Positions 464 through 59,913 are shown, counted from the stretch's first letter. The stretch is DNA of 64,000 nt from a virus (IMGVR_UViG_3300037010_002844:1-64000), one strand, 5' to 3'. Translations and numbers: made by a program. The notes: generated by a model from the sequence alone, not told the origin.

Positions 464-766
464 ATGGCAACCAACCTCAAGTTCGCTGATGTGCTAAACT
501 ACCTCGCCACGTGCCAGCTCACCCCCACGGAGACGCAGCAGCTGGCCAAGGCCTGGAACGCCAACATCAAACGGCAGCGTACCGCGACGAAGGAGACCGC
601 GATCGCCCAGTTCCGCGTCGGACAGCGCGTCAGCTTCACGGCCCGTGGCGGGTTTCCCTGCACCGGCGTCATCGAGAAGGTGATGCGGGTCAACTGCTGG
701 GTCCGTGAGGATATGACGAAGCAGCGCTTCTACTGCCCGTCGACCTGCCTCAAGATCATCGCCTGA
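464..766 (+). CDS. small hypothetical protein (100 aa), SH3/KOW-like 'GQRV...G.I..V' motif
   Basis: ORF. Its start lies in the conserved context ACTAGAACCATGGCAA, which recurs in inverse orientation at 5453-5468. Contains FRVGQRVSF...GVIEKV, resembling the recurrent small-protein family in this window. Confidence 0.45.
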   Translation: MATNLKFADVLNYLATCQLTPTETQQLAKAWNANIKRQRTATKETAIAQFRVGQRVSFTARGGFPCTGVIEKVMRVNCWVREDMTKQRFYCPSTCLKIIA

Positions 767-770
767 TCCT

Positions 771-800
771 CGCTCGCGGGTGTGCAACTCGTTGCAAAGG
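771..800. promoter_or_regulatory. 30-nt inverted-repeat operator/promoter element, copy 1 of 3
   Basis: CGCTCGCGGGTGTGCAACTCGTTGCAAAGG. TGTGCAA and TTGCACA are reverse complements. Near-identical copies at 5852-5880 and 7525-7553. The TTGCAA half doubles as a -35-like hexamer 18 nt upstream of TAGGAT (816-821) and the ATG at 828. Confidence 0.6.
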
Positions 801-827
801 CACCGACAGGTGTGGTAGGATAAATCC

Positions 828-1283
828 ATGACCTGGGGCAAGCGACCCTCATCACGTGGTAGGGGACCGATCAACTGGAAGAAGGACGCAGAGACCTTCG
901 CGGTGCCGGTTGGCAAGATTCGGCGTCATACCCACGAGGAAGACGTCCCACTCGAGAAGCAAGAACTATACGCCGCCCACATGGTCCCGGGCGCGATGTG
1001 GGAGGTGATGAAGGACCTCGAGCTGGTCAAGCTCGGTCCCAACGTGGTGCAGCCGCCCTTTCCACTGCTGCAGGTCCACATACCTCGCACCTGGGATCCG
1101 ACCTACGATCCCAACAAGTCGACCGTTGCCCGCGCCAAGGCCATCGCTCTCTACGTTGACTCCGTCCGCGTGGATGAGCAGGGCAAGCAGGGCACGCTCC
1201 GCGTGGTCCGCCACACCTTCATCGTCGGCGGCGGGCGCTACATCATCACAGATCTCAACTGGGTCAGGCCGATTGATGACTGA
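828..1283 (+). CDS. hypothetical protein (151 aa)
   Basis: ORF preceded by GGTAGGATAAATCC directly before the ATG. Stop overlaps the next start (ATGACTGA). Confidence 0.45.
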   Translation: MTWGKRPSSRGRGPINWKKDAETFAVPVGKIRRHTHEEDVPLEKQELYAAHMVPGAMWEVMKDLELVKLGPNVVQPPFPLLQVHIPRTWDPTYDPNKSTVARAKAIALYVDSVRVDEQGKQGTLRVVRHTFIVGGGRYIITDLNWVRPIDD

Positions 1284-1563
1284 GAAGAAGCGTTCTCCAC
1301 GGCAGCTGGCCCGCCTAGCGTTGGGCGAACTCGTCATCTACAACGAACACCCGTCCCGGAAGGACGAGCCCGACCGCTTAGCGATGGTCATCGGCTGCTG
1401 GCGCTGGGGTGCTGACAGCAAGACACGGGAGGACCTCTTCAACGTCTGCCCCCGCGAGGTCGACTGGGCACAGGGCTACCTGCTACTGCCCAACTCAGAA
1501 TCGCGCTGGGTCCGTTGCTGGTTCGGCGACATAGACACACCCGAAAAGCTCCGCCGCGCTTAA
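1276..1563 (+). CDS. small hypothetical protein (about 95 aa)
   Basis: ATG at 1276 overlaps the upstream stop (translational coupling). The longer 1126..1563 frame is mostly an out-of-frame overlap with the previous gene. Contains LALGELVIYN, resembling the small-family motif. Confidence 0.4.
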   Translation: MTEKKRSPRQLARLALGELVIYNEHPSRKDEPDRLAMVIGCWRWGADSKTREDLFNVCPREVDWAQGYLLLPNSESRWVRCWFGDIDTPEKLRRA

Positions 1564-1571
1564 ACGACTTT

Positions 1572-1600
1572 CGCCCCCGAAACTCTGTGGAGTCCGGGGG
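1572..1600. terminator. bidirectional stem-loop terminator between convergent gene blocks
   Basis: GCCCCCGAAACTC-TGTG-GAGTCCGGGGGC, a 12/13 bp stem. Lies between the end of + genes (1563) and the end of - genes (1742). Confidence 0.55.
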
Positions 1601-1741
1601 CGAACCTCATTTTCGAGGCCTAGGTTACAGGGACTACGTCGGTTCGCCCTTTCACCTGCTTATAAAATATATTTGCTCAGGGCATGCACCATGCCATACC
1701 CGACCCCCGAGCGACGCTGGTTGATGGGAAGTCCCTACGGA

Positions 1742-2149
1742 CTATCCCTCTTTCTTCCCATCGCTTGACTCCTCCTCTCGCTTGATGGTCTTGAGCTGCT
1801 TGACCATCGGCTCAACCTTGGTCTTCATGACTTCATCGTAGACAGCCTGCTTGCGCGCCAGCCTCTGCCTCCGTGAAGGTCGCGTCGGCTTGCCTTTCTT
1901 TGGGACGGCAACGTATTTGTTCTTGACGAGCTTCTTTCGCTCCTCGGGCAGCTTCACCAGCTGCTTCTTCATCTGCTTACGCCACAGCTTGCGAAACTTC
2001 CGCTTCAAGCGTCGGGCATCTTCCTGCTGCAGGCCTTTCAACGCACGGCGGACGTCCATCGTCGGGTCTTCCATCGGGACGATGCCCTCTTGGAACATTG
2101 CCGTATGGATGAAGATTCGCGTGGCGTCGTTGAGCTTGTTGTTGCGCAT
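1742..2149 (-). CDS. lysine/arginine-rich basic protein, possibly DNA-binding (135 aa)
   Basis: Very basic composition (KRKFRKLWRKQMKKQLVKLPEERKKLVKNKYVAVPKKGKPTRPSRRQR). ATGA overlap with the upstream gene. Confidence 0.45.
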   Translation of the reverse strand: MRNNKLNDATRIFIHTAMFQEGIVPMEDPTMDVRRALKGLQQEDARRLKRKFRKLWRKQMKKQLVKLPEERKKLVKNKYVAVPKKGKPTRPSRRQRLARKQAVYDEVMKTKVEPMVKQLKTIKREEESSDGKKEG

Positions 2150-2484
2150 CAGCTGCCTCCGACCTTCTGCTGCCAGACTCGTCGAATCGATTCTATCGCC
2201 TGGTGCATCCGTTGTGCACCGACGGGATTGGCCGAATGAACGCTGATGATCTCAGGCGGGATGAAGTCCTGACGGGCGCACTGCTCTTCCAACCAGCAGA
2301 CAACATCGTAGCCGGTGCCTGCGCTCAGAGGTCCCAGATCGTGGTCGAGGCTTAGCTCCACCACGCGGCCCGTCTCCAACAGGCGCTGCGCGCCCGCCGC
2401 TGTCTTGGCGTGGATCCAACCTGAGGGCGCAGGCCGCTCATCATCAAGCCACAGTCGCATCGTCATCTGCTTCTGCTGGGTCAT
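2149..2484 (-). CDS. hypothetical protein (111 aa)
   Basis: ORF coupled on both sides by start/stop overlaps. Pattern LWLDDER...LSLDHDLG...ISVHSANP suggests a small Rossmann-like fold of unknown function. Confidence 0.4.
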   Translation of the reverse strand: MTQQKQMTMRLWLDDERPAPSGWIHAKTAAGAQRLLETGRVVELSLDHDLGPLSAGTGYDVVCWLEEQCARQDFIPPEIISVHSANPVGAQRMHQAIESIRRVWQQKVGGS

Positions 2485-3031
2485 CGTATTTCTCGTATCC
2501 AGGCGCCTTCGTCGCCCAGAGCAGGTATGTCCGCAGCATGGCGACCCGCGTCCTGTCGAAGGCTGCCTTGTCTTTCTTGGTCAACGCACCCAGGCGCCGC
2601 GCTAGCTTCCAACCACGGTGCCAGGCCTCGAACTCTTCATCAACGATGTCAATTCGATGATGAAATGAACGCTTAACGTCGGGATCCTGGTTGCCGTAGC
2701 CCATCCCGTAGCGCTCATATTTGTCCTTGCTGCCGATCAGGTGGTGCCCACACTCATGCAGGAGGATGTGCAGCTGGTGCTTCGGCGAAGCCCGGCCGCT
2801 GACCTTGATCTCCTTGTCAGCCGTGTAGTAGATACCACCGCTGCGCTTGCAGAAGGTCACTGTCAGCGACCGGGCCTCACACCACTCCACCACCACGCGG
2901 AGTGCCGAAACGTAGTGGCGATCTTCCGTCCACCGCTTGGTGGCCCGGTCTGCGTTCTTGCCCGCTTGGATCGCTTTTTGAAAGCGATCCCAGGCACGTG
3001 CATTCCACAGCTCGAGATCGAAGGCCGCCAT
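2444..3031 (-). CDS. putative zinc metallopeptidase-like protein (HExxH)
   Basis: HECGHH motif (LHILLHECGHHLIG). Immediately downstream of the AAA_5 ATPase in the same operon. Confidence 0.45.
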   Translation of the reverse strand: MAAFDLELWNARAWDRFQKAIQAGKNADRATKRWTEDRHYVSALRVVVEWCEARSLTVTFCKRSGGIYYTADKEIKVSGRASPKHQLHILLHECGHHLIGSKDKYERYGMGYGNQDPDVKRSFHHRIDIVDEEFEAWHRGWKLARRLGALTKKDKAAFDRTRVAMLRTYLLWATKAPGYEKYDDPAEADDDATVA

Positions 3032-3044
3032 GCAGGTAACTAGG

Positions 3045-4205
3045 TCACTTCTTCTTCCCTCCCGCCCCGGGCGACTTGAAGATGCCGGGGATGTCAGGAA
3101 CGATGCCGATGCCAGCCTCGCCCATCGGGACGCCGAAGACGTCCAGGACTGCGGCCGCGCAGTACTTGTGGATGCTGCGTGCCAGCTCCATTTTGTCGGT
3201 GCCAGGCAGGGTCAGCTTGGACCAGCAGTTGACGCGCTGCTCACCCGGCAGGTCCTTGAGAAACTGCTTCAGGTTGGTGCCTTGCTTCTCGGTCAGACTG
3301 TTGAGGTTCTTGGTCACGTGGTCCGAGACCTTATCGACCAGATCGTTGATGCGGTCGGCCGTGAACTTCTTGACCTTGTGCTGGACCTTGTCGTACCCGT
3401 CGATCACGTCTTTGCCCGAGACGCGGGTGTCGACGGTGACCGCGAAATCGTGGAAGGCGATCGCCGCCTCGACACCGACGAAGCCCACGGCTATGTGGTA
3501 GAACAGCGGGTTGCTGGGATCATCCGCGACCCCGGCGTGCTTGTGCGAGCGGTCCATACGCTCCCAGCTACGCCGCGAGGAATGAACGCTGCCGGCCTCG
3601 GCGCCCTTGGGCGGGTCGAGCCACTTCTCGCCGTTGGCAGCGTGGAAGTCGATCAGGGTCGGGTGAATGTCACCCTCGCCCTTTGCCCAGGCGAGCCAGT
3701 CCTTGACGTCCGGCTTGAGGTCGACGACCCAGAAGCGATCGAGGAGCGCCGGATCCATCTCGTTGACCGTGTACTCCTGTGAGGAGTTGATGGCCGACCA
3801 GACGCGGGTCTGGGGGTGCAGCTTCCAGCCGTTGAGCTCACGGTCGAGCACGATCTGGAACGCTGCCTGCATGACCTCCTGGGTCGCGCGGTTCAGCTCG
3901 TCCAGCAGGAGGAAGCAGGGCCGGACGCAGGCACGCTTGTACCAGTCGGGCGGATTGAAGCGCGTGACCTCGCCGTCGGTGCTGGGGAGGCCGATGAGAT
4001 CGCCTTCCGTCTTCTGCGACAGGCGCTGGTCGATGAACTCGAAGTCCTTGATCTGCTCCGCGTGAGCGATGATGCGGGCGACCTGGCGAGCCAGCTGCGA
4101 CTTGCCGATCCCGTGAGGACCGCGCAGCAGGACGGAGATGAAGGCGGGGAGCTTGGGAGAGACGTCCACAAGGGTATGGATCGCCATGGAGTTGGGAGTT
4201 GCCAT
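3045..4205 (-). CDS. AAA+ ATPase, AAA_5/MoxR-like subfamily
   Basis: Walker A LLRGPHGIGKSQL, Walker B FLLLDELNRA, sensor region QTRVWSAINSS. Layout typical of MoxR/CbbQ/GvpN-type AAA_5 ATPases. Confidence 0.7.
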   Translation of the reverse strand: MATPNSMAIHTLVDVSPKLPAFISVLLRGPHGIGKSQLARQVARIIAHAEQIKDFEFIDQRLSQKTEGDLIGLPSTDGEVTRFNPPDWYKRACVRPCFLLLDELNRATQEVMQAAFQIVLDRELNGWKLHPQTRVWSAINSSQEYTVNEMDPALLDRFWVVDLKPDVKDWLAWAKGEGDIHPTLIDFHAANGEKWLDPPKGAEAGSVHSSRRSWERMDRSHKHAGVADDPSNPLFYHIAVGFVGVEAAIAFHDFAVTVDTRVSGKDVIDGYDKVQHKVKKFTADRINDLVDKVSDHVTKNLNSLTEKQGTNLKQFLKDLPGEQRVNCWSKLTLPGTDKMELARSIHKYCAAAVLDVFGVPMGEAGIGIVPDIPGIFKSPGAGGKKK

Positions 4206-4249
4206 GTGGTGGTGTCTCTATCCTAACTTAGCGAGTCCCGGCTTTACAC

Positions 4250-4945
4250 TCAGGAGACGCGGTGGAGGTGCGAGGTGTTCGGCCGCCGCTCGTCGACGGT
4301 GATGGTGTACTTGCGCTCGACCTTGCCGTTGTAATCGTCCCGCGAGACGGGGTAGACGCCCGTCTTGATGCCCGGCAGCAGCGAGGAGGGGATGTTGCGA
4401 TCCTGACCCACGCGCATACCCTTGCGGACCATGTCGGCGGCCTCGTGGAGAACACGCTCGATGCGGGCTTCCTCGGCCTTGCGTTCCTGCTCGGCCATGA
4501 ACGCCGCCTGCTCCTCCGCGGTGCGGATGCAGACCGCGATCCCGTCGCCGATTTCCGCGTTGATCGCCTCCGTGAGCTCGACGACCCTGGTGTAGAACTC
4601 CAGGCGCGCCTTGGCGAGGGCGGGCCGCGTGTCTCCGTGGCTGGGCCAGTTGACCTCGACGCGGAACTTGTAGTTCCGCCAGATCGACCCGTCCTCACGG
4701 GGCTTCAGGTCGCGGGTCCAGTCGATCGTATCGAACCGCACGTAGAGGTCACAGCTCGTGTCGATCTGCTCCGTGGTATCGCGGAACATCACGGACACGT
4801 TGCCCGCGGAGCCCGACTTGCGCTGCTCGCGGAGCGACTGCATGGTGTGCGGGGACAGGTACTTCTGCGCGATCTCGCTGGCAAGGATGAGGTCGATGGC
4901 CTTGTGAGCGCGGTCGATGATGAGGGGCTGTTGCATGGCGTTCAT
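4250..4945 (-). CDS. hypothetical protein (231 aa)
   Basis: ORF preceded by the conserved 35-nt leader repeat containing GGTAGGATAGA. Confidence 0.45.
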   Translation of the reverse strand: MNAMQQPLIIDRAHKAIDLILASEIAQKYLSPHTMQSLREQRKSGSAGNVSVMFRDTTEQIDTSCDLYVRFDTIDWTRDLKPREDGSIWRNYKFRVEVNWPSHGDTRPALAKARLEFYTRVVELTEAINAEIGDGIAVCIRTAEEQAAFMAEQERKAEEARIERVLHEAADMVRKGMRVGQDRNIPSSLLPGIKTGVYPVSRDDYNGKVERKYTITVDERRPNTSHLHRVS

Positions 4946-4981
4946 GAGTCTATCCTACCAGGATCAGAGATGAAGGTTCAC
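4946..4981 (-). promoter_or_regulatory. conserved 35-nt leader/promoter repeat, copy A
   Basis: On the minus strand it reads GTGAACCTTCATCTCTGATCCTGGTAGGATAGACTC then ATG. About 80% identical to 5272-5307. Confidence 0.5.
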
Positions 4982-5271
4982 AGCAGCGCCAGCGAGATCG
5001 CCAGCTCCAGTCCGGGCTCCGTCAGTGCAAACACGTGAGCACCTGACTTCGTCTTGCCGACGACCTCGATGAAGCCTCGGTGCACCAGGGACGCTCGCCA
5101 GCCGTACCCGTCTCGTCCGGAGGTGACGAGGGAGTGCCCCCACGTCGGGCTCTGGAGCGCTCGTCGCTTCTGTTGGATCACTGCGAAATCTTTCACCGTT
5201 GCCGTCTTGTTGCGGACGAGGGTGAACAGGATATCGCGGATCGTGGGAGAAATGCGGCTTGGATTGACCAT
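4978..5271 (-). CDS. small hypothetical protein, possible winged-helix DNA-binding (97 aa)
   Basis: ORF preceded by the second copy of the 35-nt leader repeat. No strong motif. Confidence 0.4.
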   Translation of the reverse strand: MVNPSRISPTIRDILFTLVRNKTATVKDFAVIQQKRRALQSPTWGHSLVTSGRDGYGWRASLVHRGFIEVVGKTKSGAHVFALTEPGLELAISLALL

Positions 5272-5307
5272 GAGACTATCCTACCAGGTTCAGCGTTGAA
5301 GATTCAC
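5272..5307 (-). promoter_or_regulatory. conserved 35-nt leader/promoter repeat, copy B
   Basis: On the minus strand it reads GTGAATCTTCAACGCTGAACCTGGTAGGATAGTCTC then ATG. Confidence 0.5.
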
Positions 5308-5460
5308 TGCGCGCCACAGGCGCTTGACCTCACGCCATAGTTCCTCGACTGTGCACGCAATCTCCTTGCGGAACTCTTTTGAGAGAGGACGCGAGGACTG
5401 TGCCCGGACGTTGTCCGTTAGGATCTCGATGTCCGCGTCGGTCAAGGGGCGCTTGCCATG
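5294..5460 (-). pseudogene. small gene with apparent 1-nt frame disruption just after the start
   Basis: The ATG at 5458-5460 sits in the conserved ACTAGAACCATGGCAA context but opens only 5 codons (MASAP*). A 56-codon frame lacking an ATG (KRPLTDADIEILTDNVRAQ...LWRAVNLQR*) continues in the +1 frame. Confidence 0.3.
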
Positions 5461-5540
5461 GTTCTAGTTTAACTCAGCGAACCCAAAGTTTGCACTGCGA
5501 GCACAGAATATTCGTAGAATCAAGCCATAAGATACCCCGT

Positions 5541-5630
5541 CGGGCCCATGAAAGCCCTCCCGTGGGTCCCCTGTGGGCACAGTTTTGGTTGCTCATGGGC
5601 CCGAGAAGTGTAAGAGCTCATGGGCCCAGG
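5541..5630. repeat. GCTCATGGGCCC iterons in a divergent intergenic region
   Basis: GCTCATGGGCCC occurs directly at 5591-5602 and 5615-5626. Its inverse GGGCCCATGA occurs at 5543-5552. Lies in the 480-bp spacer between the - block and the RecA-like gene. Confidence 0.5.
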
Positions 5631-5851
5631 GTACTATAAGACCATGAGCAACGCCTTCTAGAACTTCGTCAGGCAGCACGATACAGGCATCTCGCGGACC
5701 GGGTGTCCACGCGGCACCTCTCGGGTTCGATCTTGACCTGACTCACCTGTCGGAGCTGCTGCGGCTTGCCCAGCAGACGGGTTACCAGCTCTGCAACACG
5801 GGCTGGGATGACTGCATCATGGTCACCTAGACTTTCAGCGTTGGCTGATCG

Positions 5852-5880
5852 CGCTCGCGAGTGTGCAACCCATTGCACTG
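5852..5880. promoter_or_regulatory. 30-nt inverted-repeat operator, copy 2 of 3
   Basis: CGCTCGCGAGTGTGCAACCCATTGCACTG, about 60 nt upstream of the RecA-like gene. Confidence 0.6.
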
Positions 5881-5941
5881 GGTGAAAATCAGCGCCTGGG
5901 CGTGATAGACTGTAGACCTCCACCACCACGGGGTAAGATAT

Positions 5942-6706
5942 ATGGCGAGCATGAACCTCAACGTCGGAATCAAGGGCCTGAAGCAGGGCACCAACATCAT
6001 GGATGTTGAGGTGCCTGAGAAGCTGAAGCAGCGCATCAAGACCGGCATCACCTGGTTCGATGACGCGGTTGGTGGCCAGGGTTTCGTGCCCAGCTCCGTC
6101 ATGATGCTGACCGGTACGCCTGGCGCCGGCAAGACCACGATGCTGCTGCAGCTGGCGGACGCCATCACCGGGCAGGGGAACATCTGCCTCTACAACACCG
6201 GCGAGGAGTCGCTCTACCAGGTGCGCATGGTGACCGAGCGCCTGAAGTTGAAGCACGGCTTCATCTGTGGCCAGGACATCATGGTGCCCGACCTGCTGAA
6301 GCACGCGGACGCGCTGCGCAAGGCCAACCCGAAGAAGCAGGTCTTCATTCTGCAGGACTCGCTGCAGACCCTGGACGACGGCAAGTACTCCAACGGTACC
6401 AATGGCGCCACGCCGCTGCGCTGCGTCGAGATGCTGACCGACTGGGCGAAGAGCACCTACGGCATCGTCATCTTCATCGGACAGGTCAACAAGAGCGGCG
6501 AATTCGCCGGCAAGAACGGGATCCTCCACGCGATCGACGTCCGCGGGTCGCTCTACATCGACCAGGAGAAGAACAGCGAGACCTACGGGGAGCGCATCTT
6601 CGAGGTCACCAAGAACCGCTTCGGTTGCTCGGGCCGCGCCTACGTCCTCGGCTTCCAGGAGAAGGGGCTCTTCGAGAAGGGCAGCTTCGGCATGAACGAG
6701 CGCTGA
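5942..6706 (+). CDS. RecA-superfamily ATPase (RadA/KaiC/Sak4-like recombination or DnaB-C-like)
   Basis: TWFDDAVGG...VMMLTGTPGAGKTTMLLQL Walker A. Walker B-like VFILQDS. RecA-fold layout. Confidence 0.6.
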   Translation: MASMNLNVGIKGLKQGTNIMDVEVPEKLKQRIKTGITWFDDAVGGQGFVPSSVMMLTGTPGAGKTTMLLQLADAITGQGNICLYNTGEESLYQVRMVTERLKLKHGFICGQDIMVPDLLKHADALRKANPKKQVFILQDSLQTLDDGKYSNGTNGATPLRCVEMLTDWAKSTYGIVIFIGQVNKSGEFAGKNGILHAIDVRGSLYIDQEKNSETYGERIFEVTKNRFGCSGRAYVLGFQEKGLFEKGSFGMNER

Positions 6707-6789
6707 ACCCGCGATCTGGGGGCGCAATTCTCGGGAGAGACGGGGGCACGGGTCCTTAGGGACCCAAGCTCACGCGGCCAACGGGAGAC

Positions 6790-6830
6790 CAATAGCGCCG
6801 AACCCGGTTCGATTCCGGGGCGCTCCACGA
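6790..6830 (+). other. tRNA 3'-half-like fragment (T-arm plus 3' acceptor strand)
   Basis: CCCGG-TTCGATT-CCGGG is a canonical T-arm (GGTTCGATTCC), followed by GCGCTCC-A. No complementary 5' acceptor strand or anticodon arm lies within 110 nt upstream, so this is not a complete tRNA. Confidence 0.35.
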
Positions 6831-7124
6831 GAGACGGATATACTGACAAGGGCAACACCACGTGCCGGGAGGTAAAGGAACAACTAGTCGAAGTCGTCAG
6901 TTGACAGATGCCTTGACAAGACTGGATCTACGTAGCATTGCAAGAACCTGCCAGATCAAGTCAAAAGAGGTCGTTTCTCTCTTTCAATGACGATGTTAGC
7001 TCGTGATTCTTCTCCTTTGCGGGAGAAATGTCAGCCAACATCTACGTTCTATAAGTTGACCGTAGATCTCGTAAGACAGATGCATGTTTAACAATGACAG
7101 GGAGAGGAAGAGAAAGTCTCTGCT

Positions 7125-7158
7125 CCCCGGTCAACCCCATCTCAACACCGGGGTTTTT
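7125..7158 (+). terminator. intrinsic terminator (hairpin plus T5)
   Basis: CCCCGGT-N15-ACCGGGG followed by TTTTT. The T-run overlaps the stop codon of the convergent minus gene. Confidence 0.55.
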
Positions 7159-7576
7159 ACGGCTTCTTAGCCTGAGACTTGCGGAGGCGTTCCGCCTTCT
7201 CCTTGTCCTTCTTTTCTTTTTCCTCGGCACGCTCGTCTGAGGTCTTGACGGTGTGCAGGGACTTCTCATCATCGAGATAGTAATAGAGGGTACGCTTGGC
7301 AACGCCCAGCTCGCTGGCTGCCTTGGCAGCATCGCCCCCGTGACCGTTTACGGCGGCGCGGACCCTGTTGCGGAACTTCTCAGGGTTGAGCTGGCGCACT
7401 GCCCCGATGTCGGTGCGCGGCCCGCCGGGCTTGGCGTGGCGCTTCTTCTCGTCGAGGAGATCCAACGTCTCCTTGATGAACTCCTTCAACAGTGCTGCAC
7501 TCATGGGTCTAAGTAGGCAGCCCGCGCTCGCGGGTGTGCAACTCATTGCACAGTTGATACCCATGAGAGGGCCCAA
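7157..7576 (-). CDS. HTH DNA-binding protein (candidate regulator or small terminase-like)
   Basis: AAKAASELGVAKRTLYYYL is a helix-turn-helix. Basic/acidic KE-rich tail. Operator copy 3 lies directly upstream. Confidence 0.5.
   Translation of the reverse strand: MGPLMGINCAMSCTPASAGCLLRPMSAALLKEFIKETLDLLDEKKRHAKPGGPRTDIGAVRQLNPEKFRNRVRAAVNGHGGDAAKAASELGVAKRTLYYYLDDEKSLHTVKTSDERAEEKEKKDKEKAERLRKSQAKKP
7525..7553. promoter_or_regulatory. 30-nt inverted-repeat operator, copy 3 of 3
   Basis: CGCTCGCGGGTGTGCAACTCATTGCACAG, upstream of the minus-strand HTH gene. Confidence 0.6.
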
Positions 7577-7738
7577 TTCCGCAACTCACAGGTAGAGTTC
7601 ATAGTCGAAGTTCCACACGGGGATGCGGGCACGGGCCCAAGAAAAAGCTTCCAACCCCGCGGCAACCCCATCTCTTTGCCGGCATTTATGCAAATGTTCT
7701 GAGTGCAAAGCTCGCTTGGGAAGGGATAGAATCTGAAC

Positions 7739-27021: not shown

Positions 27022-27405
27022 TCAATGATCGTCTGCGGGCATGCGTTGCTTGAACGTCGTCACCATCTCCATTGTGTCCTTGACGGCCCGATCGTGCAAC
27101 AGCTTGGAACCCGAGCTCGCCAGCGCTGTGATTGCTGACATAAACAACTGCAGGCCCGCGGTGCAGACCAGGATAGTACCCGCGGCCACGTGGAATAGCG
27201 CTAGGACCAGCGCCAAGACCATGGTGAAGACCAGCATGGAAACTCGGCTGTTGCTGGCGCTAGCTGCGGTCACCCAGGCCATCGCTGCCTTCTCGAGGAC
27301 GATCATCTGCAACGTGAAGTTGATCTTCTGCTTGTCGCTGACCGTCTCCCAATCAACGTTTTCCAGCTTCTTCGCGAGTTGTTCCTTGGCCTCTTCCACC
27401 TTCAT
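27022..27405 (-). CDS. membrane protein translationally coupled to groEL (127 aa)
   Basis: Two predicted TM helices (AAMAWVTAASA..., VFTMVLALVLALFHVAAGTILVCTAGL) and an N-terminal coiled coil. Its ATG overlaps the groEL stop (ATGA). Confidence 0.45.
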   Translation of the reverse strand: MKVEEAKEQLAKKLENVDWETVSDKQKINFTLQMIVLEKAAMAWVTAASASNSRVSMLVFTMVLALVLALFHVAAGTILVCTAGLQLFMSAITALASSGSKLLHDRAVKDTMEMVTTFKQRMPADDH

Positions 27406-29009
27406 TCCTTCTTCTCCTCTTCCTCGACCACAACCGCATCGAGCGACAGGAACGTCACCGCGACGGAGACGGCGTTCTTCAGGGCGGTGCGAGTCACCTT
27501 GACGGGATCCACGACGCCAGCGGCGATTAGGTCCTCGTAGGTCTCCTTAGCTGCGTTGTAGCCCAGGGTGACGTCATTGAGGTGCAACTTGTGCAGCTCA
27601 TTGATGACCACGTCGGGAGAGACGCCCGCGTTGGTGACGATGCGCCGCAGGGGCGCAACACATGCAGCCTGCACCACCTTGGCACCGGCGCCGAACGTGG
27701 AGACTGGAATCTGCTGGCTCGCAGCCGCCAGTGCCATGCCGCCGCCGGGAACGATGCCCTCTTCTGCGGCAGCCTTCGTGGCATTGAGAGCGTCTTCAAT
27801 GCGGTACTTGCGTTCCACCATCTCGACTTCCGTCGCGCCACCGACGCGGATGATGGCGACGCCGCTCGCCAACTTGGCGATTCGCATCTTCAGCTTGGTG
27901 ACCTCATCCTGCGTCTTGGTGACGTCTTCCACCTGCGATCGCAGGTTGGCCACGTGAGCGTCGACCTCGGGCTTCGTGGTACCGGTGCCGACCAGCGTCG
28001 TGGACTTGGCGTCGACCGTGACACGCTTGATGGTGCCGAGGTCAGCCAACGTCAGTGTCTCGAGCTTCAATCCCTGCGATGCAGAGACGAGCTTTGCGCC
28101 CGTCAGGGTGGCGATGTCCTGCAGTAGCTCGTCGCGGTGCTGCCCATAGCCCGGTGCCTTAACGGCCACAATCGGCAGGTTGCCCTGGACACGGTTGAGA
28201 ACCAGGCCGTGCAGCGCCTCACCTTCCACGTCTTCTGCGATGATCAGCAGTGGCGTCCGCGTCTGGAGAACCTTCTCTAGGATTGGCACTAGGTCCTTCA
28301 ACACGCTGATCTTCTTGTCAGTGACCAGGACTCGGGCGCCCTCGTAGGTCGCCAACATCCTGTCGGGATTGGTGACGAAGTACGGCGATAGGTAGCCGCG
28401 GTCGAACTGCATACCTTCGACGACGTCGAGGCTGGTCGTCATGCCTTTGGCGTCCTCAACAGTGATAATACCGTCCTTACCGACCTTGCTCATGGCCTGA
28501 GCGATCAGTTGCCCGATTTTCTCGTCACCGTTCGCGGAGATAGTGCCAACCTGGGCGATCTCTTCCGCCGTCGTTAGCTGCTTCGCAGCGCGGATCAGCT
28601 CCTCATCGACAGTGGCCCGTGCCAGCTCGATGCCTTCACATAGTTCCTTCGCCGAGAAGCCAGCCTCCAGCAGTTTCAGGCCTTCCCTGACCATGGCGTG
28701 GGTCAACACCGTTGCTGTTGTCGTGCCGTCACCGGCGACCTCGTTGGTCTGCGATGCGGCCTCCCGGATCAGCTCTGCGCCCATCCTCGCGATGGGGTCC
28801 TTCAGCTTGACAGACTTGGAGACCGTGACGCCATCCTTGGTGACAACCGGCGCCTCGCCCTTGCGCTGGATCAGTACCGTTTTGCCCTTCGGGCCCAGCG
28901 TGCAGCTGACGGCCTCCGCGGCGATCTCGAGACCGTTGTAAAGCTTACGGCGGGCCTCGTCCTTGAAAACAACCTTGGTGACTGCGGGAGTGTCGACGTC
29001 TTGAAACAT
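27402..29009 (-). CDS. groEL: chaperonin GroEL (Cpn60), 535 aa
   Basis: Full-length match to GroEL (AAVEEGIVPGGG, DGTTTATVL). C-terminus lacks GGM repeats and ends EEEEKKE. Confidence 0.95.
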   Translation of the reverse strand: MFQDVDTPAVTKVVFKDEARRKLYNGLEIAAEAVSCTLGPKGKTVLIQRKGEAPVVTKDGVTVSKSVKLKDPIARMGAELIREAASQTNEVAGDGTTTATVLTHAMVREGLKLLEAGFSAKELCEGIELARATVDEELIRAAKQLTTAEEIAQVGTISANGDEKIGQLIAQAMSKVGKDGIITVEDAKGMTTSLDVVEGMQFDRGYLSPYFVTNPDRMLATYEGARVLVTDKKISVLKDLVPILEKVLQTRTPLLIIAEDVEGEALHGLVLNRVQGNLPIVAVKAPGYGQHRDELLQDIATLTGAKLVSASQGLKLETLTLADLGTIKRVTVDAKSTTLVGTGTTKPEVDAHVANLRSQVEDVTKTQDEVTKLKMRIAKLASGVAIIRVGGATEVEMVERKYRIEDALNATKAAAEEGIVPGGGMALAAASQQIPVSTFGAGAKVVQAACVAPLRRIVTNAGVSPDVVINELHKLHLNDVTLGYNAAKETYEDLIAAGVVDPVKVTRTALKNAVSVAVTFLSLDAVVVEEEEKKE

Positions 29010-31681: not shown

Positions 31682-32596
31682 TCAGATCTTCAACTCCATC
31701 AAGCGCTTGCCCAAGTCCTGGAGGAAGGGCACACCATACTTCAAGTTGCCTTTCGCCTCGAGATCGTGGACCAAGAACTCAGGCAGCACTTCGTCCTGGT
31801 GACGGGCGCCCGCGATTCCCCATGCGATGGCCGCGACAGAGTCCGTGTCGCCGCCCCACTCGATGACCTGGTCCATGATCTCACGGAGAGAGCGCTTGTG
31901 AATCAACAAGGTGTTGACGGCCCAGGCCGTGTTGATGCCCACGTCGTACGGCGAGTGCTTGACATTGCCTTGAACCGGGCCCTCCCAAGGCACACGGAAT
32001 TTTTCGAACAAGGGTAAGCGGGGTTCCAACCACCCCTGCATTGCAGAAAGTTTGCGATGATCGTAGAGCGCGTAATGCGACATCAGGGCGATTGCCATCG
32101 CCGACTGCACGCCCTCGTAAGAGGCGTGCGTGGTGGTCGCCTGAAACGCTGCGACTGTCAGCAACTTGTCAACGTCTTTGATGACGCCCAAGGGCACGGC
32201 ACGCATGGCCGCGCCATTCTTCGTCGAATTGGGCCGCAATGTGGCGCGGAGCTCGTCAGCTGACTTCACCGACTCTAGGATCGCCTGGAACCCACGGGAA
32301 TACCCATCGCGTGGATCACGCTTGAAGGTGTCGAACCAGGCGGCGACCCAGTCGTTGTAGCTAGCGGACGTTCCCTTGTTGATCAGGGTCTCAGCCACCG
32401 CGATCGACATCTGCGTATCGTCAGTGTACATGCCAGGACGCAGGCCTTGGTGACCCGGGTGCTGCATGTAGCCCTGGAAGGCGCGGATTTCCTTGAACTC
32501 CGGCTCATCGGGATGGAACTTGATGTACTCGAACCCGGCAGCGTAGGCATCGCCCAAAGCGATGTGCAGCAGCATGTTGTCGTTGCGGTATCTCAT
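31682..32596 (-). CDS. ADP-ribosylglycohydrolase family protein
   Basis: MLLHIALGDAYAAGFEYIKF...MYTDDTQMSIAVAETL matches the DraG/ARH N-terminal signature. Start placed at the MRYRNDN internal Met, which is an assumption. Confidence 0.65.
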   Translation of the reverse strand: MRYRNDNMLLHIALGDAYAAGFEYIKFHPDEPEFKEIRAFQGYMQHPGHQGLRPGMYTDDTQMSIAVAETLINKGTSASYNDWVAAWFDTFKRDPRDGYSRGFQAILESVKSADELRATLRPNSTKNGAAMRAVPLGVIKDVDKLLTVAAFQATTTHASYEGVQSAMAIALMSHYALYDHRKLSAMQGWLEPRLPLFEKFRVPWEGPVQGNVKHSPYDVGINTAWAVNTLLIHKRSLREIMDQVIEWGGDTDSVAAIAWGIAGARHQDEVLPEFLVHDLEAKGNLKYGVPFLQDLGKRLMELKI

Positions 32597-32606
32597 GTTA
32601 TTTCTC

Positions 32607-32807
32607 TTATGAAAGCCACCAAATGACCAGCATCGTGAATGCGCAGATGATAGCAATGACCATCACGCCTGAATTGAACTTGCGCTGAAACTCTGCGTCG
32701 GCCTTGCGGTACGCCCGCTTCTGGTCTTTGTTGAGCGTCAGCCACCAACGATGAAATCGTTCGCGGCGTTGCCGATCCTTGCGGTTTCTGCGCATCCAGC
32801 CCAACAT
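32607..32807 (-). CDS. small basic tail-anchored membrane protein
   Basis: GGAGGTG RBS before MLGWMRRNRKDRQRRERF. C-terminal TM VMVIAIICAFTMLVIWWL. The longer ORF 32607..32990 is probably an upstream extension. Confidence 0.4.
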   Translation of the reverse strand: MLGWMRRNRKDRQRRERFHRWWLTLNKDQKRAYRKADAEFQRKFNSGVMVIAIICAFTMLVIWWLS

Positions 32808-33444: not shown

Positions 33445-34344
33445 TTACTTCATTCGACCAACAGCACGCAGCAATCGCTTGTTGTAACCGCCAAACGAAC
33501 CCGCGAGCAGGACGCTAGGGTCGACCCAGCGGACAACGCCCGATTCTTCGGTGTCGATTTGGCCCTCAACGCGGCCGGTAAACGTGATAACGTGGTAACC
33601 TCCCTCGTCGACGTCTTCAAAGACTTGATTCAAGTCAGTGATGTGAAGGCCCGTCTCTTCTTCCAGCTCACGGGCCGCTGCAGTCGCTGCGTCCTCGCCT
33701 GGGTCGATCTTGCCACCGGGCAGGCCAAAGTCGCTTGGGTCATTCTTCCCGGAGACTGCGAGGATCTTGCCAGCGCGATTCATCACCAACACACAAGCCG
33801 CACGAGGCAGTGCGGCGGCGTCCTGTTGGACCTTGGCGTCCACGTCAGCCTCATCGTCCAGGATGTTACGATTCTTCTGAGCCAACGTGGCGTCCCCGTA
33901 GCGCAAGTTGCCGGCGACGCCGTCGCGGCCTGCAGTGTTCAACGACTTGAAGCCCGTCAACACTTCGTTGACGAAGACCTTTAGCAGCTCGTGAGACTCT
34001 CGGGCCGGCGTCCTGTAGGGACCCATATCGGGTGACTCTGCGGATTGATCGTCCTGAACGTCAAAGCCTGCTGCGTCGAGGTCGGTGATGAACCGACCAC
34101 GCTCTTCGGGAGTCATCTCCACGAAGATAAAGCGCTCAGTGTCAGCCATGTCATAGGCCCCCGACGACTGACGCCAGGGTTCTTGCGTGGCATTCCACTT
34201 GGCGAGCACCTTGCGTAGCCTCGACCAGTGATCCTGTGACTGCTCAAACGTCCACGTCTTGGACAGGCGGACGTTGCCAGCTCGCCAAGGACCGACCTTC
34301 AATGGCAGAAACTTGCTCATTTCTTCGGTTGTGGGGTTGGACAA
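33445..34344 (-). CDS. Nudix hydrolase with N-terminal extension domain
   Basis: Nudix box GGKIDPGEDAATAAARELEEETGL (GX5EX7REUXEEXGU) in the C-terminal half. Confidence 0.7.
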   Translation of the reverse strand: MSNPTTEEMSKFLPLKVGPWRAGNVRLSKTWTFEQSQDHWSRLRKVLAKWNATQEPWRQSSGAYDMADTERFIFVEMTPEERGRFITDLDAAGFDVQDDQSAESPDMGPYRTPARESHELLKVFVNEVLTGFKSLNTAGRDGVAGNLRYGDATLAQKNRNILDDEADVDAKVQQDAAALPRAACVLVMNRAGKILAVSGKNDPSDFGLPGGKIDPGEDAATAAARELEEETGLHITDLNQVFEDVDEGGYHVITFTGRVEGQIDTEESGVVRWVDPSVLLAGSFGGYNKRLLRAVGRMK

Positions 34345-35019: not shown

Positions 35020-35829
35020 TCAGACCTGTGCATCAGGCGCCGGCGTTCCAGGCAAGTAAGGAACCCAGAAGTCGTTGGCGTTCGAGGCGTCCAAGTACGC
35101 ATAGGGAACGTAGGCATAGCCCTTGTCACCCCACCAGGTACCCCAAGAGTTGCGGACGATCCAGCATTGTTTGTTTTCGTCGTAGCCAACGATGACCTGA
35201 CAGTGACCGCCCGAATTGACCCGCGTGGATTTGGGCATCGGCATGATGCCCCCACGGTAGTCCATGTATTCCTGATCGACCGTCATGCCGAAGACGACCA
35301 CATGGTTGGCCTGCAATGCTCGCTTGATGAAGTCAATCCTCGTCTGACCCGAGCCGCCAATCGAGTAGTAACTGTCGATCTTATTTGGGTAGGCTTCACG
35401 ATACGAGCTCCATGAGGGTCGAATGAAAACCTTGGAGACATCATAAGGCCACTTGGCTTCAGTGCAGGTTCCCAAAGACGACAAGGTGCCAAAGGCCAGG
35501 TGAATGTAGGTGCCGTTGTCCTGGTCCTGTTCCTGCGTCATCAACCTTGAGTTGTAGTAGATGAAGAGGCGGCTGAGATCCGTCAGCTGCTGGCCATTAC
35601 GGATCTGCAGAAACTCGAGGGCGCCGACTGTACCATTGCCCACGCATGAACCTAGGTGACCCTGGTCCTCGACAGGCGAACACCACTTACGTAGGTCCAG
35701 GACGCCGTCGACCTCGGTGGATGCAGGCGAGAACTTGTCGAGGTTCTCATGGAACTGATAGTCCTGGCTGGCGTCGTGGCCGGGAGCTGTGTTATCGGGG
35801 CGCCATCCGCCCAATTTAGGAGTGTACAT
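35020..35829 (-). CDS. papain-like cysteine peptidase (C1 family)
   Basis: Cys motif DQGHLGSCVGNG, and His/Asn region GGHCQVIVGYDE...WIVRNSWGTWWGDKGYAY. Catalytic triad context conserved. Confidence 0.6.
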   Translation of the reverse strand: MYTPKLGGWRPDNTAPGHDASQDYQFHENLDKFSPASTEVDGVLDLRKWCSPVEDQGHLGSCVGNGTVGALEFLQIRNGQQLTDLSRLFIYYNSRLMTQEQDQDNGTYIHLAFGTLSSLGTCTEAKWPYDVSKVFIRPSWSSYREAYPNKIDSYYSIGGSGQTRIDFIKRALQANHVVVFGMTVDQEYMDYRGGIMPMPKSTRVNSGGHCQVIVGYDENKQCWIVRNSWGTWWGDKGYAYVPYAYLDASNANDFWVPYLPGTPAPDAQV

Positions 35830-36735
35830 TTAGGAACCCTTTCGGCCCGTCAGAAACATGAAGATCGCCCTGATGAATGCGAAGAACGTTGCCAAGAAAC
35901 CCGTCGGATTGCCAGGCACGATAGGTGCGGAAGGCACGGGCTTTGGAGGATCGGGAGACGGAGCGACTGGTTCAGGCGTGGGAGGCACGGGTTGTTCTTC
36001 CTGAGGAACTGGTGACGGAGGTGGCTCAGGTGCGGGCACCATGGGTACCGACTCTGGCTTCTTCAACTTGGACGCTTCGATCCAGTCGACCAGGTCGTTG
36101 GCTGCGCCCTGAGTAACATCGAGGTCAACGACGCTGCCGATGCCGTCGATTCGGAAGCCAGGCTTGCCGTCGGCCGCCACGTCTCCGCTCTTCTGCCAGA
36201 TGACCCAGCCTTTTGATTGCCAACACGGTGGAACCCACTTCGTTGGATCATTAACGTAGGCGGCCAACCAAAGATCGCGGGTGGCGAGGGCGGCCAGGGT
36301 CTCAGGTGCAGCACCCTTCATCTCTGCAATGATGATGGAGAGGCCCGTGTAGACGACCACGCGGCGCTCGAACAACTTTTCTAGATGTTCGATGCAGGCC
36401 AACACGTCCTTGGCATACTGGTCGCCTGTCTTGCTGGCGGGCCTCGTCTGCTCAACGTCGAGCATGGGAGGTAGGTCGCTGTCGTTGAGCGGGCCCACCG
36501 TCTTGAAGAAGTGTTCAGCCTGTATGATCGGATCAATCGAGGCGATGTAGAAGTGATACGCCCCACGCGGTAGACCCGCTTTGGGTAGCTCGGCCCAGTT
36601 ATATGCAAAGGAGGAATCGACGGTCTTATCACCGCCGCTCGCCTTTGCATATACGAAGTCAATCTTGCCCGTCGCCTTGACCTTTGCCCAGGCAGGCTTG
36701 CCTTGGGCGTAGGACACATCAATGCCTGTCGCCAT
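35830..36735 (-). CDS. GH25 lysozyme/endolysin with Pro-rich linker and C-terminal hydrophobic anchor
   Basis: GIDVSYAQGKPAWAKVKATGKIDFVYAKASGG...GAYHF is the GH25 signature. C-terminal PEPPPSPVPQEE linker plus TM-like tail FLATFFAFIRAIFMFL. Confidence 0.8.
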   Translation of the reverse strand: MATGIDVSYAQGKPAWAKVKATGKIDFVYAKASGGDKTVDSSFAYNWAELPKAGLPRGAYHFYIASIDPIIQAEHFFKTVGPLNDSDLPPMLDVEQTRPASKTGDQYAKDVLACIEHLEKLFERRVVVYTGLSIIIAEMKGAAPETLAALATRDLWLAAYVNDPTKWVPPCWQSKGWVIWQKSGDVAADGKPGFRIDGIGSVVDLDVTQGAANDLVDWIEASKLKKPESVPMVPAPEPPPSPVPQEEQPVPPTPEPVAPSPDPPKPVPSAPIVPGNPTGFLATFFAFIRAIFMFLTGRKGS

Positions 36736-57616: not shown

Positions 57617-58216
57617 TCATGCGGGAGCGCCTCCGGCACCACCCCCAGCTCGGGCGGCGGCGGGAGCCGGGAACTCATCGTCGGCTGCCTCTTCAGGCGA
57701 CTTACCGATCTCGATGCCGTGCTCAGAACGCAGGTTCTCCTTGAACGCCTCTACGACTTCTGGGGCATAGTTCTTGCCCAGGAAGTTGGCCGCTCGACGG
57801 AGCAATGTGTTGCGCAACTCCAACAGTGACGCGGCGTTGTCGATCAGGCGCATCACAGAATTGGCATAAGAGTCCATGTCGATGGAATCGACGCCGGGCT
57901 TCGAGGGCGCGTCGCTGCCTTCGTCGCCGAGGCCGAACTCATCATCGCCACCTTCATTGTCACCCTCGTCATCGCCGGCCTCGACAATGCGCCGGACCGC
58001 GCGACGCCAGTCCTTGCCTTCGGTCTTGGCGGACTTGGCTTCGCTCTCGTATTCTCCGAGGTAACGATCGATCTGCGCGTCGACAGAGTCCTCGCCGTCC
58101 TCACGCTCAGGTTCCTTACCGGCCGTGGGATCATTGCCGCCGGCCTCACGTAGAAATTCCTCGCGGAGGATTCGCTTCAGATCGCCGACCTTGATCCTGA
58201 TCTTTCTGTCCATCAC
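57617..58216 (-). CDS. N-terminal targeting-motif family protein, acidic (199 aa)
   Basis: MMDRKIRIKVGDLKRILREEFLREAGGNDPTAGKEPE, which is the motif followed by a linker. Confidence 0.45.
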   Translation of the reverse strand: MMDRKIRIKVGDLKRILREEFLREAGGNDPTAGKEPEREDGEDSVDAQIDRYLGEYESEAKSAKTEGKDWRRAVRRIVEAGDDEGDNEGGDDEFGLGDEGSDAPSKPGVDSIDMDSYANSVMRLIDNAASLLELRNTLLRRAANFLGKNYAPEVVEAFKENLRSEHGIEIGKSPEEAADDEFPAPAAARAGGGAGGAPA

Positions 58217-58923
58217 TTCACCGCCACTGCAATCGCCTCACCGCGCTTGAAGCGGTCTTCGATCACGGTCCAGTTGAACTCGCGCATCTGCGAGATGAGA
58301 TAGCTTTTCTTGTCGGACAGGTAGTCGCGGTAGTAGGCATGTTCATGCATGTCGACCACGATGATAGGGTACAACCCAACCATGACGTCCTGGCTGTGAT
58401 TGCTGATGATGACATTGACATAGCGCTTCAAGAAGGCGTGATAACCGCACACCACCCAACCGTTGCCCGCCGCCATGCCGCAGGCAATGAAGTCACGTTG
58501 CCAGTCCTCGAAGGTCCCGAAGTCACGCTGTAGCTTCAGGTACGAGATCGAATCCATCACGATCTCGCTGTGAGGATCGAAACAGTTGGCAAAGTACAAC
58601 TCGTGCAGCCAGACGGCATTGAGGTTGTATGCCTCGTCTAGCTTCAACGATCTGAAGTCGCTGTGCTTCGAATTGGCACCCGAACGATCTGCGGTGTCGA
58701 GCTCCGACGAGACCTGATTCACTTGCTCAATGTAGTCCTTGTAGAGGGCGGTGTGAGCGTCCTTGGTCTTCTGTGAGATGAGCTCGGAGACCTGTTTGAA
58801 GGGCTTCTGCTCGGCCACGTACGCTTCCTTGAGAGGCTCGCGTGCCGCGCCCATCGTCTCCTTCACGGACTTCCTTAGAAGGCCGTCGACGTCGAGGCCC
58901 GTGTCTTTGTCAGTCAAGCTCAT
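58213..58923 (-). CDS. Fe/Mn superoxide dismutase family protein with about 70-aa N-terminal extension
   Basis: NAVWLHELYFANC (WNHTFYWNC), FGTFEDWQ...GNGWVV (FGSFADF...GSGWTWL) and DMHEHAYYRDYLSDKKSYL (DVWEHAYYIDYRNARPGYL). Metal-ligand His/Asp positions are conserved. Confidence 0.75.
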   Translation of the reverse strand: MSLTDKDTGLDVDGLLRKSVKETMGAAREPLKEAYVAEQKPFKQVSELISQKTKDAHTALYKDYIEQVNQVSSELDTADRSGANSKHSDFRSLKLDEAYNLNAVWLHELYFANCFDPHSEIVMDSISYLKLQRDFGTFEDWQRDFIACGMAAGNGWVVCGYHAFLKRYVNVIISNHSQDVMVGLYPIIVVDMHEHAYYRDYLSDKKSYLISQMREFNWTVIEDRFKRGEAIAVAVK

Positions 58924-59454
58924 ATTCTTGCTCCAAGGTTGTAGCGTCAACAAGGAAGGTCTCACCTTCCGGCGTTCGGAGAATGCAATCGCGGGGCCCG
59001 ACGGAGTCAACCGTGTAGCGGATGCCGCTCTTCTTGTGCAGTACCTTTAGCTCGGGAGAGATGACGATCTTCTCATCACCTTTGCCCAGTTTCGCCGTCA
59101 GTGCGACGTCGATGGTCTCAGCGAGTTGATTGACCTTGTTATCCCATTCCTCACGCATAATGCGAAGGACATCAGCCTCAGTCAGTGTCTTCATCGGGCC
59201 CTGGCGGTAAGTATTCTCTCCAGCTTGAGACGCAGGTCATCACGATTGGCTTTCGTTCTTCCATGTACAACTATCGATAGAGTCATGTTTTGAGCGGTAA
59301 ACCACTCATCCTTTGCACGATCTGAAAGCCAGTTGCGATAGATTCCTTTGTCACGTGGATTTGTGATGCCATCATGACGTCGATGGAGCGGTCAAGACCG
59401 TGCCAATATTCGCTGTCGTACTGAATGTACGTATTGATGCTTTTGACGTAAAAG

Positions 59455-59913
59455 TCAACGGGCCAATCTTGAGTTGATAATCGCATCCTCTAGCGATAGC
59501 ACTTCAATACCGACGGACCGCAGGAGATTTAGCCCTGCCGGATCGCGGTAGGGAATCTCATAAACAACTCGGGCAATCTCAGCATTGATGATCAACTTGG
59601 CGCAGTCCTTGCACGGGCTGTGAGTCACGTACAGGTGTTTCTTCTTGGGAAAGTTGAAGTCACACTTGACCAGCGCATTGACCTCGGCGTGAATAAAGCC
59701 TGACTTGCCAGGTTCCTTCGACTCGTGCTCGTGTGGCCCGCCTTTGTAGTTGCCGTTGTACCCGATCGACAACATCTGGGTATTGTCGTATGAGACGACG
59801 ATGGCGCCCACCTTTAGCCTGGGATCGTAAGAACGCAAGGCAATCGTCTTGGCGACTGCCATCCAGATCGAAGGCCAGGTGGGCCGCAGTTCTTCGCTAT
59901 TGTGGGTCATCAC
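59455..59913 (-). CDS. dCMP (deoxycytidylate) deaminase
   Basis: HAEVNALVKC...HSPCKDCAKLI are the zinc-binding H(A)E and PCxxC motifs of the CDA fold. Confidence 0.85.
   Translation of the reverse strand: MMTHNSEELRPTWPSIWMAVAKTIALRSYDPRLKVGAIVVSYDNTQMLSIGYNGNYKGGPHEHESKEPGKSGFIHAEVNALVKCDFNFPKKKHLYVTHSPCKDCAKLIINAEIARVVYEIPYRDPAGLNLLRSVGIEVLSLEDAIINSRLAR

Follow-up and report, generated by a model that had tools for sequence, protein, structure and literature searches.

The operators OR and OL of lambda-type Cro/CI control are short dyads that lie at several early promoters and overlap their -35 and -10 elements, and the regulator gene stands beside its own site and is autoregulated. Fis and NtrC-family proteins bind dyad sites as dimers, and the Mor and C activators of phage Mu are small helix-turn-helix (HTH) dimers that act on a dyad that overlaps the -35 element and extends just upstream of it. 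In T4-type phages, promoter-early stem-loop (PeSL) cassettes are repeated short regulatory units that border small early genes in a plastic region of the genome. The repressor of L5 and Cluster A mycobacteriophages recognizes many copies of one short site, distributed over promoters and short intergenic gaps with a striking orientation bias; these sites are asymmetric 13-mers bound by a two-domain monomer (PMC9283540). Here we describe a repeat unit of ~30 nt, built around a 16-bp dyad, in a 64,000-nucleotide stretch of viral DNA (IMGVR_UViG_3300037010_002844:1-64000; hereafter the window) that belongs to a very large, uncultivated virus-like genome. We propose, with a probability of roughly 0.6, that the dyad is the operator of a Fis/NtrC-type HTH protein encoded beside one of the copies (7157-7504, minus strand), which would thereby regulate its own gene and control a few early promoters.

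By analogy, the closest counterparts would be the lambda-type operators and, for the copies between genes and their polarity, the operator/stoperator system of Cluster A. As in lambda, repeated dyads are found at early promoters, overlap -35 elements, and in one case adjoin the regulator gene. Unlike in lambda, the sites are single rather than tandem triplets, are spread over ~10 kb and have a polar center; the protein is Fis/NtrC-like, with no detectable relation to Cro or CI; and the genome belongs to a giant phage in which no lysogeny function, such as a repressor or integrase, was recognized among the window proteins scanned.

The repeat unit and its dyad core

The unit is present three times in the window, each time on the plus strand, at 770-799, 5851-5880 and 7524-7553 (copies 1, 2 and 3). 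A 20-mer taken from copy 3, GTGTGCAACTCATTGCACAG, allowing up to three mismatches, has exactly three matches in the 64 kb (780-799, 5861-5880 and 7534-7553, all plus strand); dinucleotide shuffles of the window yield a mean of 0.01 matches, and three were reached in none of 100. A repeat finder independently groups the same three copies as a 32-nt family. The three near-identical copies reported in the preliminary description are thus found where it had placed them, and a fourth can be added from L128, the public-assembly locus of the same genome (window position 1 corresponds to L128 9174, with 11283/11283 identical positions in the overlap). This fourth copy (L128 6390-6417, plus strand) lies ~2.8 kb upstream of the window start, flanked by two co-directional genes, 8 nt past the stop codon of a minus-strand gene and with its center 75.5 nt upstream of the next start codon. 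When the copies are aligned together with 45-nt flanks, the unit has sharp edges and dissimilar surroundings, and its consensus is CGCTCGCGrGyktGCAACyCrTTGCAmwG. A search for near-identical DNA in a collection of named phages gave no match; among viral contigs a strict 24-mer had no match and a loose 17-mer gave scattered single chance matches, and a degenerate 25-nt form of the unit gave three unrelated chance matches in JGI metagenome contigs, which do not include the source genome.

Each copy contains a dyad core: GTGCAACTCGTTGCAA at 782-797 in copy 1, GTGCAACCCATTGCAC at 5863-5878 in copy 2 and GTGCAACTCATTGCAC at 7536-7551 in copy 3. This core had been given as a perfect dyad of the form TGTGCAAC-N3-ATTGCACA, a geometry that has to be corrected: the perfect dyad of copy 3 is TGTGCAA-N4-TTGCACA, and the core shared across lineages is GTGCAAC-YC-RTTGCAC. 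The latter is the consensus of a 16-bp near-palindrome at 29 sites, which come from the tabulated lineages that carry the HTH gene (a further lineage, L164, holds more copies), and its positions 2-7 and 11-15 are invariant or differ at one site. Weak symmetric flanks (c w ... w g) lengthen the dyad to ~20 bp, with the extended consensus cwGTGCAAC-YC-RTTGCACwg. The two TGCA cores are 10 bp apart and the half-site centers ~9-10 bp apart, about one helical turn, and the arms are nearly invariant across the 29 sites, which is the inverted-repeat arrangement of an operator for a dimeric HTH protein. The neighboring proteins of these lineages, by comparison, are only ~50% identical.

An inverted repeat at gene junctions could alternatively act at the RNA level, by forming a hairpin for transcript termination, processing or stabilization. 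This would suit the copies that lie ~8-15 nt past a stop codon (L128 6402, copy 1, L135 10362, L161 8309, and L143 2110 and 2816), and copy 3 is able to fold as two adjacent hairpins. The folding data nevertheless make this explanation extremely unlikely: the stem comprises only 6-7 base pairs, the minimum-energy folds of copies 1 and 2 do not include the dyad hairpin, and the z-score goes beyond -2 in one of eight folds (four copies, both strands). Moreover, the arms are invariant rather than covarying, and changes in a single arm are mostly uncompensated. An intrinsic (Rho-independent) terminator was rejected as a candidate, given that the fold energies are mostly no better than those of shuffles, that no U tract or T run follows any copy, and that a terminator scan picks up none of them.

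The left part of the unit, the GC box GCGCTCGCGGG, is a separate element that is fused to the dyad in the window lineage, at 770-780, 5851-5861, 7524-7534 and L128 6390-6400. Elsewhere it stands next to the dyad at single sites, in L135 (17308, a similar box) and in L164, where a similar GC-rich palindrome (~4122-4135) lies between the dyad and the TACTTA -10 element of the HTH promoter. Related GC boxes also precede the HTH gene in L135, L139 and L140, so the 30-nt unit may be a piece of the HTH promoter region that was copied elsewhere in the window lineage. On its own, GCGCTCGCGGG is mildly over-represented and occurs within genes too.

The adjacent helix-turn-helix protein and its co-occurrence with the dyad

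The candidate regulator is a protein of 115 amino acids encoded on the minus strand (7157-7504). Its gene had been described as starting with a TTG at 7576, but the true start is the ATG at 7504, as indicated by public gene calls of 115 amino acids, by the alignment of homologs, and by a conserved -10 element, TACTTA (7510-7515, minus strand), which stands 5 nt ahead of this putatively leaderless ATG and reads TACTTA or TACCTA at all homologous loci. With this start, copy 3 is intergenic: it lies between divergent genes, 19 nt before the start codon of the HTH gene, which is on the opposite strand, and its dyad is centered 39.5 nt upstream of that codon.

Homologs of the protein are ~45-60% identical, and the protein is found on a contig of 309,481 bp. 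The family is small, with 180 cluster representatives among 1.84 billion at E <= 0.001, 56 of them at E <= 1e-10; a single-sequence search of viral contigs gave no relatives, and a profile search found one. Two features are invariant across the family: the recognition helix RTLY(Y/H)YL, which is part of the HTH pattern GD..AA..L.VA.RTLY.YL in the family alignment, and an N-terminal motif, PGGPRTDxGAxRQL. An invariant recognition helix fits the invariant dyad arms, and with helix and site both invariant, no covariation of specificity is observable.

The likeness to Fis and NtrC lies in the pattern GD..KAA..LGV..RTLY, which matches Pfam HTH_8, and in the best-matching folds (NtrC1, NtrC4 and Fis), all short of significance. 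HTH_8 matches 11 of 13 family members at E values up to 1, the best being 2.2e-5. The AlphaFold2 model of the window protein is mostly confident, with a mean predicted local distance difference test (pLDDT) score of 81, and a sequence search of the PDB with the HTH profile returned just a 25-residue designed HTH_8 peptide (E = 0.2). In contrast to Fis and the NtrC family, scores lie near or below threshold, the protein has no receiver or AAA+ domain, and the N-terminal motif is not a Fis/NtrC feature.

Every lineage with a close homolog of this protein also has the dyad. In the vicinity of the HTH gene, at distances of a few kb, the 16-nt core occurs several times in each of the independent lineages L135-138, L139, L140-142, L143, L144, L145, L161 and L164 and in the window lineage, and all loci fetched via a close HTH homolog have a dyad within ~10 kb. 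In seven related lineages, the RadA-like gene that follows copy 2 in the window is 72-79% identical and has the same promoter type; no HTH homolog was detected in these lineages by tblastn, by a profile hidden Markov model or by a collection-wide profile scan, and no dyad with up to one mismatch was found in ~67 kb of their DNA. The reverse search, with the exact 16-mer against 2.9 million IMG/VR viral contigs, brought up one phage that had been sampled twice (3300016471_000965 and 3300016472_000994). It has three perfect copies and also encodes a RadA-like relative and an HTH homolog; the other 16-mer matches were scattered singles. In L162, a divergent homolog with the altered helix RTVYYWM has no dyad within 11.5 kb. 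Since the dyad is kept in all related phages that have the HTH gene, it is most likely the site of that protein.

Placement of the sites is consistent with a regulatory role. Four lineages have a dyad just upstream of the HTH gene, and its center is at -29.5 in L143 and L144, at -39.5 in the window and at -47.5 in L164; L135 and L161 each have a copy 8 nt past the HTH stop codon. Of 22 scored sites, 16 are fully intergenic, compared with 25% intergenic DNA (binomial P = 4e-6, a somewhat generous figure since some of the sites are orthologous). The dyads within coding sequence at L135 9160-9175, L139 5645-5660 and L140 3801-3816 are orthologous and belong to an AT-hook gene, the homolog of 7739-8404 in the window, where they sit in the variable linker between two GRP AT-hooks; they are perfect in two of the three loci and have one mismatch in L135, and the window gene has no dyad. 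Their retention within a poorly conserved linker suggests that selection acts on the DNA and not on the protein.

The same distribution bears on whether the dyad could instead be read by a transcription factor of the host, exploited by the phage, with the HTH gene unconnected to it. The sequence is kept across phages with divergent proteins, and identical 16-mers, sometimes paired, are present in unrelated viral contigs of different GC content, both of which would be compatible with a host factor. However, no dyad was found in the ~67 kb from relatives that have no detected HTH gene but share the promoter architecture and therefore probably have similar hosts, and the dyads cluster within ~10 kb around the HTH gene, with none in the other 56 kb of the window. 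We consider a host factor unlikely, and favor the HTH protein as the reader of the site.

Some observations were made alongside. The public HTH call of L164 (4087-4512, P0015) extends upstream across the dyad, giving CNELH in translation; such mis-annotation could be used to find more dyad-bearing loci from protein sequences alone. Identical 16-mers at L150 705 / L154 21 (IMGVR_UViG_3300013120_000903) and L157 2533-2607 lie in DNA of differing GC content, with no relative of the window proteins detected in the fetched stretches. One of these contigs has the 16-mer twice within a longer repeat, and in the other, two copies at a distance of 59 nt stand among AGTTGTATAGACAAC repeats. Relatives also have a second dyad, TTGAAAG-N3-CTTTCAA, found repeatedly in their divergent control regions (L124 5833-5886, L139 8428-8609, L140 5846-6029 and 13031). 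In L124, one of the seven related lineages in which no HTH homolog was detected, it stands upstream of the RadA-like gene promoter, at the place that copy 2 occupies in the window; the window itself lacks this second dyad.

Promoters, proposed regulation and site polarity

The first 8 kb of the window and the preceding 9 kb contain many small genes, almost all of which have a promoter of one family, GTG[AC]A[ATC].. - 14 nt - GGTAGRMT - 6 nt - ATG. This family has ~20 members at small early genes in L128 (1-20456) and is likewise kept in related viral contigs. Its members in the window are 793-821 and 7704-7732 on the plus strand, 5466-5494 on the minus strand, and the 42-nt repeats 4943-4984 and 5269-5310, also on the minus strand. 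From sequence and spacing, we infer that these boxes are promoters and that the resulting mRNAs would be leaderless.

At copy 1, the 3' half of the dyad is predicted to double as a -35 element, as the preliminary description had noted: TTGCAA (791-796) is followed, after an 18-nt spacer, by the -10 element TAGGAT (815-820), then by 7 nt (821-827) and an ATG. This putative leaderless promoter, P828 (791-820, plus strand), precedes the first gene downstream of copy 1 (828-1283, plus strand), whose product of 151 amino acids has no family match and weak homologs in relatives; the dyad is centered 38.5 nt upstream of the ATG at 828. Copy 2 abuts the predicted promoter of the gene for a RadA/KaiC-type ATPase (5942-6706, plus strand; 254 amino acids, KNRFG motif). 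This promoter (5882-5911, plus strand) comprises a -35-type box, GTGAAAAT (5882-5889), and the -10 element TAGACT (5906-5911) in the exact register of the family, and it is kept upstream of the ortholog in seven relatives. The dyad ends 3 nt ahead of the -35 box and is centered at ~-47.5 relative to the predicted start of transcription; a dyad also precedes the RadA-like ortholog of L144.

Copy 3 lies between the HTH gene and its conserved divergent neighbor, a plus-strand gene for an AT-hook protein (7739-8404, 221 amino acids). A role of copy 3 in driving this neighbor was considered and dropped, because the neighbor has its own consensus leaderless promoter, GTGCAAAG-N14-GATAGAAT, at 7704-7732 on the plus strand.

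In the relatives, five further sites are centered at -28.5 to -30.5 (~-29.5) of leaderless promoters, with the distal half-site in the -35 position. Together with copies 1 to 3, they overlap or abut promoters that were predicted from sequence, and the fourth copy and some other sites are not at promoters. The suggestion that every copy heads a transcription unit is hence borne out in part: copies 1 and 2 overlap or abut -35 elements, but the fourth copy lies just past a stop codon, and copies in relatives can lie between convergent genes or within coding sequence.

Taken as an operator, the 16-bp dyad within each 30-nt repeat would be bound by a dimer of the 7157-7504 protein. At the protein's own leaderless promoter, the site centered at -39.5 would cover the -35 region, so that the protein would limit its own synthesis. 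At P828, where the 3' half-site would be the -35 hexamer, binding would exclude RNA polymerase and shut the promoter. At the RadA-like gene, where the site abuts the -35 box, the protein could repress or assist, and at the fourth copy, between co-directional genes, it may act as a roadblock or occupy an auxiliary site. The placement of copy 2 and of the L161 6738 site resembles that of the sites of Mor and C. Unlike these activators, the protein has no match to the Pfam Mor family, and most sites overlap the -35 element and the spacer, which suggests repression. The copies together would form a small regulon in the early-gene region of an uncultivated giant phage. An early regulon of a dimeric HTH protein, with the adjacent gene as autoregulator, is also what the preliminary description had put forward; apart from its dyad geometry and its start codon, this remains the best-supported reading, with conservation, co-occurrence, intergenic enrichment and -35 overlap in its favor.

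Several observations weigh against this assignment. On the protein side, the window protein scores under the HTH_8 gathering threshold (17.8 versus 22 bits), and its top Foldseek matches in the PDB, the DNA-binding domains of NtrC-family proteins (NtrC1, NtrC4) and of Fis, are not significant (probability <=0.94, E >=0.6). On the side of distribution, most loci were fetched via the HTH gene, so that co-occurrence arises partly by construction, and the negative control took in contig flanks rather than whole genomes. In L148 a divergent homolog with the helix RTAHYHI stands alongside perfect dyads, and the L135, L139 and L140 lineages have no canonical dyad at the HTH promoter. Several sites lie off promoters altogether (one between convergent genes, one within coding sequence, some right past stop codons). 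Lastly, the half-site resembles the -35 consensus of the clade (GTGCAAA), and RNA polymerase or a host factor could therefore be its reader, and the dyad has a polar center with a shared orientation, which a symmetric dimer leaves unexplained. The last two points lead to explanations of their own.

The resemblance to the -35 consensus could mean that the dyad is a promoter element for RNA polymerase or a sigma factor, the palindrome being two overlapping -35 elements or an extended one. The ~20 leaderless promoters of the clade use GTG[AC]A[ATC] as their -35 element, the 3' half of copy 1 would serve as that of P828, and at the five sites in relatives the distal half is exactly in the -35 register. 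That a second half-site accompanies only one of ~22 promoters in L128 argues against this, as does the equal conservation of both arms, which a one-sided -35 element would not need. Moreover, many dyads have no -10 element at a usable distance on either strand, and some sites are between convergent genes, within coding sequence or right past stop codons. On balance, a promoter element is an unlikely identity for the dyad.

The polarity of the sites is pronounced. Their center is the non-palindromic YC in 29/29 cases, and the YC strand is opposite to that of the HTH gene in 26/29, irrespective of local gene direction. Between co-directional genes, the YC strand is the gene strand at 10/13 sites, a count that is confounded by the constant orientation relative to the HTH gene. 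The sites may thus be polar, genome-oriented elements, acting either as a stoperator-like directional block that partitions the early region into transcription domains or as a copy-and-paste cassette that reshuffles early genes. This reading, which we hold to be unlikely, follows from the constant YC center, the 26/29 sites pointing the same way, the several copies past stop codons, and the lineage-specific flanks shared within genomes. As in the L5 system, some copies lie a few bases past stop codons and most share one polarity, but the site is a dyad and the protein is small with a single HTH.

A related explanation takes the 30-nt units as boundaries of recombination or shuffling, that is, as regulatory cassettes that rearrange early genes like those of T4-type phages. 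The region is indeed rearranged: the window and L144 have the RadA-like gene in inverted orientation, and the position of the AAA_5 block varies between lineages. Copies within a genome share flanks specific to their lineage (the GC box in the window, AGTGC..GGTA in L144, a TTGCAA arm in L161), suggesting that whole units were copied, and the units are in one orientation. However, the core is kept at positions that are partly orthologous and not rearranged, no recombinase gene was detected among the main genes at 464-8404 in Pfam and PHROGs scans, and no indel or breakpoint was shown exactly at a copy. Gene order around the units differs between lineages, with no breakpoint mapped onto a unit. 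In contrast to PeSL cassettes, the units have no stable stem-loop, and their core is kept among distant relatives and tied to one regulator gene. A shuffling cassette is therefore very unlikely.

The operator reading provides a concrete and testable regulator-operator pair in uncultivated giant phages, where transcription control is almost unknown. It comes with a binding consensus to base resolution and with candidate target promoters, including those of the regulator's own gene and of the RadA-like ATPase gene, and the leaderless promoter pattern could help to annotate this clade. Since control of early promoters by a phage HTH protein that binds dyads is textbook material, the circuit itself is ordinary and adds one more example of a familiar principle; what is new is an uncharacterized regulator family in a barely known giant-phage clade.

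Genome context

Relatives of a neighboring gene reside on IMG/VR contigs of up to 297,894 bp. Between copies 1 and 2, a minus-strand operon (1742-4945) encodes a cREC_REC receiver-like protein (2149-2484) and an AAA_5/MoxR-like ATPase (3045-4205), together with three unknown proteins. In all relatives, the RadA-like gene remains linked to this ATPase and two of its partners, relative to which it is inverted in the window and L144.

Two long stretches of the window have no called genes: 6707-7156 (450 nt), between the convergent RadA-like and HTH genes, and 8644-9198 (555 nt). A search of the long intergenic gaps for inverted repeats gave nothing relevant, with no notable repeat in these two, and an Rfam scan of the whole window found no family. 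The largest open reading frames (706-781 amino acids) have no PHROG or Pfam family match. On the plus strand at 11150-13729, the window encodes a protein of 859 amino acids with matches to the Major Vault Protein repeat, the MVP shoulder and SPFH/Band 7, which is unusual for a phage-like genome. Further genes encode a chaperonin (Cpn60; 27402-29009), an ADP-ribosylglycohydrolase (31682-32656), a NUDIX protein (33445-34344), a papain-like protease beside a GH25 lysozyme (35020-36735), a protein with a superoxide-dismutase C-terminal domain (58213-59010) and a poly(A)/CCA-polymerase-like protein (59910-60785). A 5'-3' exonuclease is also encoded in the window.

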